Notes: generated from the letters alone by a model not told the origin. 64,000 nt of DNA from Eledone cirrhosa (GCA_964016885.1 OZ024740.1:358918001-358982000); one strand, 5' to 3'; counted from the first letter of the stretch, positions 19,036 to 62,655 are shown. Translations and numbers: made by a program.

Positions 19036-19078
19036 ACGGTGCTGATGACAGCTAATAAGCTAGAAACTAGTTCATCGT
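19036..19078 (+). ncRNA. Minimal type I hammerhead ribozyme
   Basis: acggtg-CTGATGA-c(agct aata agct)a-GAAA-ctag-TT-catcgt; palindromic stem III aactagtt. Confidence 0.75.
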
Positions 19079-21007
19079 TCCTTTGTCAGTGTTGAACAAA
19101 ATGGCAACGATGGTAGCCGAACACTGTACGGCTAATAATTCGGGCTGTTTGTTTACAAACAAACCGAGCATTATAATAAATGTTCGGTAAACCCATACGT
19201 ACATATATATATATATGTGTGCATGTATGTATATACTTACTACTGTACATCTGTATACATATATGTATGTACGTGTTCATACTTATATTTAAGTATCAGC
19301 CGTACTAAGAGTGGGAAATGAAATTTCCTTTTCTCTCTCTCTCTCTCTCTCTCTATATATATATATATATATATATATATATATATATATATATATATAT
19401 ATATATATATATATATGTAAAGAGAGAGTGTGTGTGTGTGTGTGTGTGTGTGTGAGAGAGAGAGAAAGAGAGAGAGATTTGTTTTATCATTTACTAGTTC
19501 CACTCACCAGACTGTGGAAATGGTGCGGTGACAGCCTAGTGTTTTAATCGATCACATTGTACCCGGTAATTATTTTCTTAGTCTTGGTTTATTGAAGTTA
19601 TTCATCACTCGCCATATTCAGACAGCAAAATTCTATTTATATGTATTCATTTGAAACGGTGCACTCCCCTAAGGTATTTTTCTTGTCTCACACACTCATA
19701 AACACATATATATTAATACAATTACACACATATATATATATATATATATATATATATATATATGTGTGTGTGTGTGTGTGTGTGTGTGTGTGTGTGTGTG
19801 TGTGTGTGTGTGTATGTATGTATATATATATATATATATATATATATATATATATATATATAAAACACATATATATATACATATATATATATATGTATAT
19901 ATATATACACACATATATATATATACATATATATATATATATATTATATATATATATATATATATAGGTAAACCAAAGTTTGTTTTCTTTTCAATACATA
20001 TTAATGCTATGTGATGCTGCTTATTTTCCAATCTTTCGGATCTTAACTCTCGGAGCTTCCGGACCTTATCTCTGATTTATTTGATCTGCATGCTTATAAT
20101 CATAACAACATATTGAGCTTCCCATCATCTTGTTTAATAAAAATTGAGAATATCACCATTTATAAATCTTTGTACACACATATATATATATATATATAAA
20201 TATGTATGTGTGTGTTTGTGTGTGAATGCTTGTGTGTATTTTTATGCAAACACACATGCAGTGAACGCAGTGAATACACATACCACAACGATCATAGAAC
20301 GCTCGCTCCGCTTTCCCTCCTTTACTGTCACACATTATCGCTTACCCAATCTCTTGTTTGTTTTAATTTCAACTACGTTTGCTTCTCTCTTTATCCTATA
20401 TTTTTTATCCCTGATCTCTGATGCACATTCTAACATCCATGGCCATTAGATATATCTTTTTATATGTGTTTTCGAATTAATTCGGGTTTCTTTTACGAGA
20501 TTACATTCGTTCTATTGCCCTTTTTCGGTTAATGGTGGCAAGTGACTTTTCTCTATTGATTTATATAAGGTATATAAGAAAATGTCCTTTCATTTGAAGG
20601 ATTCCAATTAAAAAAATGTCCTGCTATATAATTTAGTTGAAGACGGATGCTTTAGAGTAACTTAGGGGAAAAAACACTACTGCTCAGTGAACTGTTTTGA
20701 ATTTATTCAAGAAACTCAAAATATCACATGCACAAACGCAAATAAACACACACAACATCCACACGTAGATACACGTACACCCACACACCCACATTTACAC
20801 ACACGCATACACAGAGAGAGGGAAACACACACACACACACACACACACACACACACCCACACACACACACACACACATATATATATATATATATATATAT
20901 ATATATATATATATATATATTATATACATATATTACATATATAAATATATATATATATATATATATATATATATATATATATATATATATATATATATAT
21001 ATATAGC

Positions 21008-21245
21008 AAAACGTATGACCCCGACGGCAGAGATCAAGCCGTTTCGACGGCTATTTCTGGACTAACGGCAGAGCTCAAGCCGTTTCGACGACTATTTCTG
21101 GACTAAATTTAGTCCAGAAATAGCCGTCGAAACGGCTTGAGCTGTGCCGTCGGGGTCATACTTTTTCCTATTTCCCACTCTACTACCCTAGGTATTGAGT
21201 ACTCAGGTGCGTTATGGTCCATCTGGTTCCTTACCACAATTCCTA
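21008..21245 (+). mobile_element. (TA)n-embedded fold-back insert carrying 3' half of a hammerhead (Penelope pLTR-like)
   Basis: Inverted arms centred at ~21107; GAAA-cggc...gccg-TC-ggggtc at 21129-21157; ~41-bp duplication in left arm; tail homologous to 15657-15700 (minus). Confidence 0.65.
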
Positions 21246-21274
21246 TGTATGTGTGTATATATATATATATACAT

Positions 21275-21627
21275 TTTAAACAAGGACAACATTTCACAGT
21301 TAAACGCAACTTTACATGTGCATCTGAAAACCTAATCTATGTTTGACCTGCTCAGGTTGTCGAGAGCACTAAATAGGACAGGCAAAAAACAGCCTCCGAC
21401 AACGTATGACCGTCCACAAATCACAATTCAAAATACAGGAATACAGAAAGATTGCGTTGCGTGAACATATCGCCAATTGTGCACCCAACCCACATCCAAA
21501 CTTTAAAATTTTTCCCCATTTACAAATTCATAGACAACGTTACTTTCACCCATCGTACCAATAAGGAAACGTATTTCATTATCAAATTCCAACCTCTACT
21601 TAATGGACTAAACTTCGGACTAAACTA
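21275..21627 (+). pseudogene. Penelope-like element GIY-YIG endonuclease fragment
   Basis: Hand translation across frameshifts: FTCASENLIYV/LTCSGCREH*IGQAKNSLRQRMTVH...KETYFIIKFQPLLN. Confidence 0.85.
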
Positions 21628-22047
21628 AAACTGGAACGAACAATCAAACATTTACAAATACCTATGTCTCTCTAAAGAGTCACCTCCCTTACACCCTACC
21701 TAATCCTTTTTCTTAAATAAATTAAATATGATCCAGCATGAATTAACTCCCCTGCATATTAACTCTCTAAAAAGGGAAAACATATCAAACCCCAGTCCAC
21801 CATTTGCCTCCATCATGGATCAACTAAGCACTCTTGCTATATTAACACATTTTGATCTGCTTATCTTCAAGAACTATGCCTGTAAATTACATTATTTTTT
21901 CTTACACATTGCCTTACTAAGCTCCACATTACGTACCTTTTCTTCTTTTTTATTTTCACTTCATAAACGTTGTTCGTAAATAACATTATTCTTTCTGCAC
22001 CATTTCTTTAACATGTCCATCACCTCCATTCTACACCAATACATATT

Positions 22048-22095
22048 ATTATCATTTGATAATGCATAAAAATGCTGAAACCGGTAATAGACAAT
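22048..22095 (+). ncRNA. Type I hammerhead, U3-A8 core variant, in 3' region of the Penelope fragment
   Basis: TTGATAA-t(gcat aaaa atgc)t-GAAA-ccgg-TA-atagacaat; weak bulged stem I. Confidence 0.6.
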
Positions 22096-22398
22096 TATTA
22101 AATATATAAATAAATAAATAAATGCCATTGTTAATTAATAAATAAATCAACTAATAACTTACCACTTAAACACAAAGTAAAATATTTCGTTTTAATCATT
22201 TTCTAACCCAGAAAAAAGAGAGAGGAAAATAAAAAGGGATAAAAATATATTTTTCTTCCTAATAATCGTCGTTTTCTCCCTGTTTTCACATATATATATA
22301 TATATATATATATATATATATATATATATATATATATACATATACATATATATATATATATATATATATATATATATATATATATATATATATATATA

Positions 22399-22572
22399 TA
22401 TTGTTATGCTTTGGGATGGTCATATTGCCAATAAGAAACACACGCACCAGTTGTTTTCACTCCAATTTATTATAAATTAAATTTATAAATTTAAGAATAT
22501 ATAAATTTCCGGTTTGTTGGTTGTTGCGTGTGTTTCTTATTGGCAACATGACCCTCCCAAACCATAACAATA
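22399..22572. repeat. Fold-back insert between (TA)n tracts
   Basis: ttgttatgctttgggatggtcatattgccaataagaaacacacgca vs tgcgtgtgtttcttattggcaacatgaccctcccaaaccataacaa. Confidence 0.85.
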
Positions 22573-60718: not shown

Positions 60719-60934
60719 GGATAAAATGTATATATATATATATATATATATATATATAAAGTAAGAATATTTTCGAAACACCGAGAGGGTTTGAAATTAT
60801 TAGAAATTATTAGAAATTATTAGAAATTATTGCCGTATTTTGACTAAAGAAATTAAAGAAATTATTTAGCCTGATAGTGGGGTTAAGAACCCTCGGAGAA
60901 ATGGAAAAAGATGAGTATTGACGTACATATAAAT

Positions 60935-61080
60935 AAATCAACTAATACCTTAACACTTCACACAAATTAAACCATTTCGTTTTAATCATTTTCTAACCCA
61001 GAAAAGAGAGAGAGAGAAACAAAAAAGGAAAAAAATATATTTTTCTTCCTCATAATCGTCTCTTTCGACCTGTTTTCACA
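60935..61080 (+). mobile_element. Penelope 3' tail, same family as 22140-22290
   Basis: tttcgttttaatcattttctaacccagaaaa...cctgttttcaca then (TA)n in both places. Confidence 0.75.
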
Positions 61081-61190
61081 TATATATATATATAAATGAA
61101 GTAATTCCGTCGGAAAAGTCCAGGAAAAAAGAGTGCTCTATGTAGGTAACAGAGCTTAATAGTTATGTAATAAACAACATAAGGCAATTA

Positions 61191-61250
61191 TTTCATTTAC
61201 CAGTGGTTTCTTAAAAGCAAAAAATGTTGCTTTCAATCATCAGAATGAAA
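61191..61250 (-). ncRNA. Type I hammerhead ribozyme
   Basis: tttcatt-CTGATGA-ttgaaagcaa cattt ttgcttttaa-GAAA-ccactgg-TA-aatgaaa. Confidence 0.82.
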
Positions 61251-61992
61251 AATTCCTGGCGAATTTATTGACATTGGATTTTAAAAACAAAAATGCAATC
61301 TATATGAAAGTGAGGCTGGAGAAGGAAGAAGGAAAGGAAAAATAAAATAAAAACACACATGCAAACACACACACACACACACACACACTTATATACATAC
61401 ACACACACATATATATATATATATATATATATATATATATATATATATATATATATACATATATATATATATATATATATATATATATATATATATATAT
61501 ATATATATATATATATATACATACACACATACATACACACACACATATACACACACACACATATACAATGCCCTAGAAAATTAAAATTGCCAAGATAACA
61601 ATAGAGTTTACCATAGCAAATTAATAATCCCAAATATTTAAAAACCCATTACCAAGGGAGTATCCCTGTGAGCGAGTTAAAGGGTCGATCGGACATGACT
61701 TGCTAGGAAGGCAGAAGGAAGTTAAATGTAATGAAAATACGTTAACATTTCGAGCGTACGCGTTGTATGATATATGCATGTGTGCACGTGAATATAAGTG
61801 TGCTTAATTGGATGTATGTATTGTTTATGTAGTGAAATGCGTGCGCGAATATGTATATAATAAAAAGGGGGAAATGTGTGTGTGATATATGTATGTATGT
61901 GTGTGAGTCTAAGTGTATTTGCTTAGTGCGGCCATAGATTTAATTTGAAAGAAAGAATGAAACGGGCCACTGAGATGTTGGAATACAGACTT

Positions 61993-62169
61993 TTAAATCA
62001 GCCATTCTGGTGCACTTCTTTCCATTCGATTATTGATCCTAGGTCTGAATTGTTTGATCAAGAGATCTCCCTTAATTCTCAGCGTGCCTATACTGCGTTT
62101 AGTAGCTAAGACTGTGGAGGTAATGTTGTCCCGGTTTCCGCATTTGATGATGTGTTTGCAGAAGAAGAG
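61993..62169 (-). pseudogene. Penelope GIY-YIG C-terminal fragment
   Basis: KHIIKC...TLRIKGDLLIKQFRPRIN; a GAAA-tgttaacg-TA half-hammerhead lies downstream at ~61738-61751 (minus). Confidence 0.65.
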
Positions 62170-62347
62170 TTGGTGTTAACACACACACACATATATATAT
62201 ACATATGTATATATATATATATATATATATATATATATATATATATATTTAAAAGTTAAACAAGGTTCAATGAATAAATCAAAGAATGAGTTTTAAAATA
62301 GATTGGAAGCACTCAACAGTAATGGTTTTCCAGAGTTATTAATATTA

Positions 62348-62655
62348 ATTAAAAATATTAACAAAATAGATATTCTTGTGATCAAGTATATTTTATTATA
62401 CATATTTCAGAGGTACTGAGTTAAGTTCAACAGTACGTCCTCATCACATAAAATAAGATGATGCGACATACCCTGACATAGTAGATGGTTAAGATTCAGT
62501 CATGGTATTAACCATCTACTATGTCAGGGTATGTCATGCATCATCTTATTTTATCTGATGAGGACTTACTGTTGAACTTAACTCAGTATCTCTGAAATAT
62601 GTATAATAAAATATACTTGATCACAAGAATATCGATTTTGTTAATATTTTGAATA
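62348..62655. mobile_element. Fold-back insert (~140-bp arms) in (TA)n with hammerhead 62547-62613 (+)
   Basis: tattttat-CTGATGA-gga..tactg..cagta..tct-GAAA-tatgta-TA-ataaaata; left arm copy has core mutated to GTGATGA. Confidence 0.82.

Follow-up and report, generated by a model that had tools for sequence, protein, structure and literature searches.

The window analysed here, a 64,000-nucleotide stretch of the Eledone cirrhosa genome (GCA_964016885.1, OZ024740.1:358918001-358982000; positions are counted from its first letter), is repeat-rich animal DNA with a GC content of 38%, many (TG)n runs and 76 (TA)n tracts of at least five units. Decayed open reading frames (ORFs) of long interspersed nuclear elements (LINEs) occupy 0-9.7 and 46.8-59.8 kb. 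The window also contains 13 insertions with type I hammerhead ribozyme motifs, one of them a tandem array, whose 3′ ends lie at (TA)n, and a remnant of the GIY-YIG nuclease of a Penelope-like element (PLE; Table 1). The 13 full motifs had been listed in a first-pass annotation made from the sequence alone and were all recovered where it had placed them. They are sequence-distinct, as had been claimed, their flanks having no more than two short stretches in common (18 and 13 nt).

A strict descriptor, consisting of CUGANGA, stem II, GAAA, A15.1–U16.1, NUH and a stem I of at least 4 bp, with wide limits of up to 160 nt for stem II and 90 nt for stem III, gave 19 matches in the window. These represent nine distinct sequences: 19036, 24061, 24849, 31949, the array, 43267 (minus strand), 59947, 61250 (minus strand) and 62547. 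In 200 local dinucleotide shuffles with the microsatellites held fixed, the number of strict matches was 0.19 ± 0.43, with a maximum of two, and the nine strict hammerheads are beyond chance. Four of the 13 motifs were missed by the descriptor, each with one stem decayed. Those at 35290 and 41525 fail on a weak stem II only, their core and stem I being intact, while those at 22048 and 23147 have a UUGANAA core (the covariant U3–A8 form) and a stem I reduced to 2 bp. U3–A8-type cores with no stem I requirement arise 0.3 times per shuffle, so that the identity of these two rests on their context. The type I core is canonical in 11 of the 13 motifs and of the U3–A8 type in the other two. Four half motifs reported alongside the full ones are also present, but they have no CUGANGA and cannot be scored as type I.

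Rfam recognizes no hammerhead or other ribozyme in the window (124 rows and two targeted scans), the matches being microsatellite or hairpin noise. Local folding gives z scores of −2 or below for five or six of the 13 motifs and above −2 for seven, modest values of the kind to be expected from short-stem-III motifs and from decayed copies. Both results would suit an origin of the motifs as chance matches in AT-rich repetitive DNA. That origin is refuted for the nine strict matches by the comparison with shuffled sequence, and the one-sided TA geometry and the two-sided pair changes in relatives of the array (see below) also contradict it; its overall probability is negligible, and only the halves and the remnant at 33.0 kb may yet be chance matches.

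The stem III loops and the base of stem II agree with their earlier description. The loop is a perfect palindrome in six of the 13 motifs and near-palindromic in most others, 35290 having a 66-nt hairpin with which this hammerhead could fold as a monomer. Position 10.1–11.1 at the base of stem II is mismatched in seven motifs (four U·U, two C·A and one A·A) and is G–C in two. Stem II is 51-95 nt long in four of the 13, and a bulge after A9, as in the consensus published in 2014, was found in none of the strict matches.

Table 1. Features of the window. Positions refer to the whole stretch; the strand is left blank for features that span both or for which none is assigned.
Feature	Position	Strand	Description
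Type I hammerhead	19036..19078	+	C·A at stem II base, CUAG loop, GUU site, TA tract 131 nt 3′ of site
Hammerhead of the 21275 PLE remnant with 3′ end at (TA)n	22048..22286	+	U3–A8 core at 22056, U·U, CCGG loop, stem I decayed
Head-to-head pair	22754..23345		Plus-arm hammerhead (U3–A8 core at 23151, CGUACG loop), mutated minus-arm copy (core at 22848)
Head-to-head pair	23865..24203		Plus-arm hammerhead 24061-24157, 62-nt stem II, 8-bp stem I; left arm ~60 nt longer
Inverted 5′-truncated copy and partial tandem (~430-nt period)	24374..25064		Hammerhead 24849-24898 (+), A·A; tail ~31 nt
Head-to-head pair centred on hammerhead	31815..32015		31949-32001 (+) complete, U·U, 4-bp stem III
Decayed hammerhead-like remnant, uncertain	32950..33004	-	Core at 32996; fails descriptor; absent from first-pass annotation
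Type I hammerhead	35290..35417	+	7-bp stem I, weak stem II, 66-nt stem III hairpin
Retrozyme-like array	35711..41466		559-568-nt non-coding unit, 35% GC, 11 type I hammerheads, head-to-head joint at 37799
Hammerhead	41525..41562	+	Intact core, U·U, decayed stem II, CAAUUG loop; 84-nt stub between TA tracts
Hammerhead	43153..43267	-	U·U, 82-nt stem II, CAAUUG loop, TA tract 59 nt 3′ of site
Hammerhead	59947..60073	+	95-nt branched stem II, 3-bp stem III
Best-formed hammerhead	61191..61250	-	7-bp stem I, 10-bp stem II; active fold is minimum-energy fold
Head-to-head pair	62249..62652		Hammerhead 62547-62613 (+), C3-mutated copy 62455-62389 (-)
Head-to-head pair with hammerhead 3′ half only (21129)	21006..21243		Right arm ~90 nt longer
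3′ half motif (18781)	18730..18924	+	Same family as 14390-14472 (87% over 83 nt)
3′ half motif (14441)	14390..14472	+	G12 lost; TA tract absent within 475 nt downstream
3′ half motif (61738), weak	61720..61760	-	3′ half only
C-terminal GIY-YIG remnant of 5′-truncated PLE	21275..21616	+	Three frame pieces, one stop
Candidate C-terminal end of GIY-YIG, weak	62023..62172	-	HMM (hidden Markov model) iE 0.068; hhalign E 0.007, probability 5.5%
Candidate GIY-YIG remnant, unconfirmed	33250..33573	-	Motif by eye; hhalign E 0.049, probability 1%
Broken L1/Tx1-like elements (three)	211-9725, 49285-53950	-	AP-nuclease and reverse transcriptase domains
Broken REL-type non-LTR retrotransposons (two)	46833-48907, 55656-59793	+	End at (AAT)n

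The association with (TA)n noted earlier holds for every full motif, but it is one-sided, on the 3′ and not the 5′ side of the cleavage site. A TA tract lies no more than 219 nt downstream of the cleavage site at 22 of 23 sites (full, decayed and half motifs taken together). All 14 sites of intact type have a tract within 200 nt downstream and four of the 14 have one upstream, compared with a fraction of 0.38 for positions drawn at random from the TA-dense part of the window; 11 of the 14 remain when tracts of at least eight TA units are required. With one value per insertion (that of the longer arm), 13/13 lie within 204 nt (P ~1e-5, the region of the window richest in TA tracts serving as the null). 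The 3′ ends meet (TA)n 8-204 nt past the cleavage site. Given the downstream and upstream counts (14/14 versus 4/14), the TA link is therefore a feature of the 3′ end and not one of general closeness. Seven insertions (21129, 23147, 24061, 24849, 31949, 62547 and the array) are head-to-head pairs between TA tracts with one arm longer than the other. The arms are identical at 87/94 positions in the pair at 22754-23345 (plus arm ~128 nt longer), at 65/65 in that at 31815-32015 (left arm 70 nt longer) and at 144/151 in that at 62249-62652 (left arm 93 nt longer), and the arms of the array reach 76 and 194 nt past the cleavage site. A head-to-head layout with a tail of 30-40 nt is a described signature of PLEs (Craig et al., 2021, PMC8557442; Arkhipova et al., 2013).

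The TA tracts could conversely have been made or lengthened at insertion, through telomerase-like or slippage synthesis by a PLE reverse transcriptase (RT) at an AT-rich nick, in which case the stubs would have seeded the microsatellites. Such synthesis would agree with the ends of the array, both of which lie at a TATAT internal to its unit (found at 5/565 unit positions), with the AT-rich microhomology in which short arms often end and with the repetition of short end motifs between TA runs at 34880-34930 and 35620. It is nevertheless unlikely: the anole PLE cuts pre-existing AT-rich DNA (PMC11167929), the (TA)n bias is described as a target preference in Naiads and has been suggested to be one in Neptune (PMC8557442), and many TA tracts in the window have no adjoining hammerhead.

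A coding link to PLEs is provided by 21275-21616. Three GIY-YIG fragments had been proposed in the window, with no coordinates given; of the three candidates located in the present analysis, this one is solid, whereas 62172-62023 is weak and 33573-33250 is unconfirmed. The solid remnant has 182 homologues at E ≤ 0.001, and 14 of these were scanned: Pfam GIY-YIG is present in 11 and RT together with a C-terminal GIY-YIG in four. A CX4CxxC linker is present in 3/3 inspected homologues; the remnant itself begins after the linker, which is not in the window, and carries no RT. The clade of this element is probably Neptune, judging by the linker of the homologues, which is also that of Nematis. Within 21275-22290, the PLE-type GIY-YIG is followed in a single orientation by the 22056 hammerhead and by (TA)n at 22290, and a 3′ end akin to that of this insertion (22048-22286) occurs again at 60929-61076. 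The candidate at 62172-62023 is followed by the 61738 half motif and then a TA tract, and that at 33573-33250 by a decayed motif and then a TA tract. No homologues emerged from word-based searches with the pieces at 33.5 and 21.4 kb, and a Pfam search of translations of the window (58 and 19 queries, with parts of 9.7-31.5 kb left out) gave no direct GIY-YIG match. The suggestion that Penelope-like machinery mobilized these sequences is supported by the nuclease–hammerhead–TA order at 21275-22290, by the seven head-to-head insertions with one-sided tails and by the motifs, which match the published PLE hammerhead consensus overall.

The LINEs of the window (L1/Tx1-like and REL-type) might be considered as carriers in place of PLEs, with the non-coding stubs as their passengers in the manner of short interspersed nuclear elements (SINEs). 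The window does contain long LINE ORFs that encode RT and AP-nuclease domains, and 12 of the 13 motifs have no confirmed PLE ORF alongside. We regard this origin as very unlikely, as pairing head to head with a tail on one side is characteristic of PLEs, REL-type LINEs end at (AAT)n and not (TA)n, and poly(A) tails are not present.

The array at 35.7-41.5 kb had been described as an elevenfold repetition of the motif at 37816. It does consist of 11 copies of one unit, but the strands are mixed (four copies minus and seven plus). The unit is typically 562 nt long, nine full units being identical once homopolymers are collapsed, and has no Pfam match and no tRNA. Its hammerhead has a C·A mismatch at the base of a 51-nt stem II and a CUAAUUAG loop. 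The two arms begin at different unit positions, have 3 nt in common at the junction and end at different places, each at (TA)n. The unit is also present in sequencing runs of other organisms; of the 18 runs that contain it, four (from four organisms and four studies) were compared, and none of the 18 is listed as RNA. Among the 40 differences of these relatives that were inspected (of 60), none is in the core, stem III or the C·A pair. Two pairs of stem II, 38403/38425 and 38405/38423, change on both sides, and a change at 38380 turns a stem I wobble into C–G in 4/4. By its sequence, the unit fits the non-LTR retrozyme type (LTR, long terminal repeat).

We favour the view that the two multimeric arms point to more-than-unit reverse transcription at insertion. 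If the array had instead grown after insertion by unequal crossover, or were an assembly artefact, it would be uninformative in this respect. This is somewhat unlikely. The units differ only in homopolymers, which also fits recent amplification or read collapse, no contig among the relatives compared spans the full unit, and local satellite-type amplification is favoured by Li et al. (2026; 10.64898/2026.07.22.740005). Later growth is harder to reconcile with two arms that are both multimeric and that differ in unit start and in end while sharing 3 nt at the junction, or with the 1.4-unit partial tandem with diverged copies at 24374-25064. The array is a clean case in which to test whether retrozymes become multimeric during insertion or afterwards.

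We interpret the window as a graveyard of 3′ stubs (pseudo-LTRs, pLTRs) from at least 13 families of PLEs and their non-coding derivatives, primed by PLEs from nicked (TA)n, with a probability of about 0.87. As regards priming, mobilization of the non-coding families in trans and cleavage, the scheme is drawn by analogy with published elements. A PLE protein with RT and GIY-YIG domains, probably of Neptune type, would bind the pLTR RNA and nick TA-rich DNA on both strands. Reverse transcription would begin within the RNA, at two sites a short way 3′ of the hammerhead, and unequal arms would result. As it would usually end early, the hammerhead would be kept in nearly every stub, and the families would pile up because the TA tracts flanking a new insert stay available as targets. 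The 562-nt array would be a non-autonomous unit, its circular or multimeric template having been traversed more than once during synthesis of both strands. The ribozymes most likely cut slowly, either as palindromic stem III dimers or with the aid of protein, thereby processing multimeric transcripts, and many of the hammerhead copies in the window are probably dead. In the anole PLE, reverse transcription starts 111-118 nt into the ORF at two sites with the hammerhead cut at 26 nt, i.e. ~85-92 nt past the cut, and both strands of AT-rich DNA are cut; the two-site internal start explains the one-sided-tail layout (Frangieh et al., 2024, PMC11167929). The insertions of the window agree with this geometry.

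Several observations weigh against this interpretation. The hammerhead of the anole PLE is cleaved only with protein and is unnecessary for insertion in vitro (PMC11167929), and eight of nine Xenopus retrozyme dimers did not cleave (Li, Clavereau & Pollet, 2026, 10.64898/2026.07.22.740005). In the window, the hammerhead fold lies 1.6-10 kcal/mol above the best local fold in 12 of the 13 motifs and is itself the best fold only for 61250. A search of the entire window with 150 PLE homologues and the corresponding HMM yielded no PLE RT, and a confirmed PLE coding remnant accompanies just one of the 13 hammerheads. The tails are mostly 60-128 nt long compared with the published 30-40 nt, and are longer in 6/7 pairs. 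Statistically, the sites and data had already been seen when the descriptor and the null regions were chosen, and a test on median distances gives P = 0.03 only. Two changes in the array relatives, at 38437 and 38434, have partners only in loose-end consensuses, and the differences of these relatives come mostly from single low-depth contigs, with 40 of 60 rows viewed.

The window motifs belong to the described class of PLE hammerheads. Minimal type I hammerheads with short stems III are reportedly known in a PLE context from Lunse et al. (cited in PMC6765202). Cervera & de la Peña (2014; PMC4209133) described genomes with minimal hammerheads in their thousands, heterogeneous in sequence and for the most part either solitary or paired on opposite strands at distances of 100-700 bp, and also reported palindromic stems III and the U3–A8 core. 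Like those pLTR hammerheads, the motifs of the window are of type I with a short palindromic stem III and no evident contact between loops 1 and 2, vary within one genome, occur as single stubs or opposite-strand pairs and include the U3–A8 variant. In the 2014 consensus, A9 is followed by a bulge and the G10.1–C11.1 pair is conserved, whereas the window has G–C in 2/13 and a 1 × 1 mismatch in 7/13. Stems II of 50-95 nt (4/13) and one stem III of 66 nt are further differences, published long stems III being those of fungal and protist PLEs. The searched part of supplementary file 2 of PMC4209133 contains no octopus entry. Both U3–A8 and U10.1·U11.1 were reported by Perreault et al. (2011), where matches with a mispair at that position were otherwise rejected, and HHR_Amex2 of the axolotl, with ~60,000 copies, has U·U at the base of stem II (Cervera & de la Peña, 2020, PMC7229834). 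The repeat annotation of Octopus vulgaris gives 30 recently active Penelope families and, in the part consulted, does not mention ribozymes. No report of cephalopod hammerheads was found in the literature, and Lunse et al. or the 2020 supplement may already show such variants. Numbers, heterogeneity, palindromic loops and the U·U mismatch are thus already published, and the surprise implied by the first-pass annotation is not upheld. The departures are of degree only: the frequency of mismatches, the C·A and A·A forms, the long stems, the longer tails and the density.

With the non-LTR retrozymes (PMC7229834; 10.64898/2026.07.22.740005), the array shares a non-coding tandem unit of low GC content with one type I hammerhead each. 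Its 562 nt lies inside the 51-972 bp of Li et al. (2026) and above the 170-400-nt circles of PMC7229834. Unlike the published retrozymes, the multimeric array forms a head-to-head insertion that is bounded by (TA)n on either side. Neptune PLEs (PMC8557442) share the C-terminal GIY-YIG with CCHH residues, the CX2-5CxxC linker (present in the homologues), an insertion bias towards microsatellites, an inverted 5′-truncated copy and the one-sided tail. Poseidon of Anolis (PMC11167929) shares an AT-rich target and two internal RT starts shortly 3′ of the cut, to the extent that these can be deduced for the window. The Poseidon start site is not homologous to its target, whereas both array ends coincide with the TATAT of the unit.

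What the window adds is a view of insertion geometry, in which members of numerous unrelated families terminate at (TA)n shortly past the hammerhead, on that side only. Its 13 insertions in 64 kb correspond to ~200 per Mb, a value for one flagged window and not a genome rate; the axolotl has 126,247 motifs in 28 Gb, or ~4.5 per Mb. It is conceivable, albeit doubtful, that the genome as a whole carries ~200 hammerhead insertions per Mb (some 10^5-10^6 for a genome of several Gb), which would be tens of times the axolotl value, in very many families that escape Rfam, and descriptors intolerant of 10.1–11.1 mispairs, through their long stems and the mismatches at the base of stem II; that the array records more-than-unit reverse transcription from both nicked strands; and that a GAG-YR-CTC dyad in the longer tails (see below) is a shared signal for the PLE protein. 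If the density were genome-wide, published ribozyme counts for such animals would be far too low, and host introns would tolerate many sense-strand hammerheads, which would support dimer- or protein-dependent cutting.

The hammerheads of the window may themselves lie in introns of a candidate leucine-rich repeat (LRR) gene on the plus strand, for which there is a 72-nt exon candidate bounded by AG and GT at 46372-46443 (+) that encodes one LRR. The 17 motif copies on the plus strand are sense to this candidate, and the host might keep the cluster to cut an intron of this gene and so regulate it. We consider such a role highly improbable. The motifs occur on both strands, as the anatomy of the elements dictates, several are decayed, and the Pfam LRR_8 match (E = 0.0028) is below the cut-off.

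The GAG-YR-CTC dyad was seen near the TA end of long tails at 15687, 17197, 18876, 21197, 23905 and 61131, with near-matches at 31860, 34858 and 62307. Read towards the TA tract, it is usually preceded by AT-N, and in inverted pairs it is found in the longer arm only. At 6/7 sites it lies 19-59 nt from the TA tract (expected 0.21; 0/300 shuffles), and it ranked first among 320 dyad motifs (0/300 shuffles). When homologous flanks were merged (81 flanks in 69 groups, with five microsatellite-filled flanks dropped), it was present in four groups, outside the top ten motifs and not significant, the best motif being marginal (1/91 shuffles). As a tail signal, the dyad is a lead only.

Among the other repeats of the window, one of the two REL-type elements has a duplicated 352-nt 3′ end. 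A SINE-like repeat of 190-200 nt is present in five copies with 79-91% identity (12146-12341, 15806-15985, 28902-29340 and 46544-46749) and presumably resembles an octopus SINE. No tRNA genes were found in the window. At 17330-18352 (+), a purine-rich 9/17-nt repeat is followed by a 143-amino-acid transposase-like frame seen by eye, for which there is no Pfam match. Shortly upstream of the 35290 hammerhead, a TA tract marks the start of a near-perfect palindrome of 192 nt (34935-35126; 93/94 per arm), with no ribozyme found inside. At three places between TA runs (34880-34930, where it occurs twice in tandem, 35620-35632 and 41509-41520) there is a short G-rich end motif, as if it had been added repeatedly at insertion ends. 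Finally, TA-bounded inverted or shared stubs with no hammerhead (22402-22629, and 24216-24259 with 59809-59847) are possibly shorter truncations of PLE ends.

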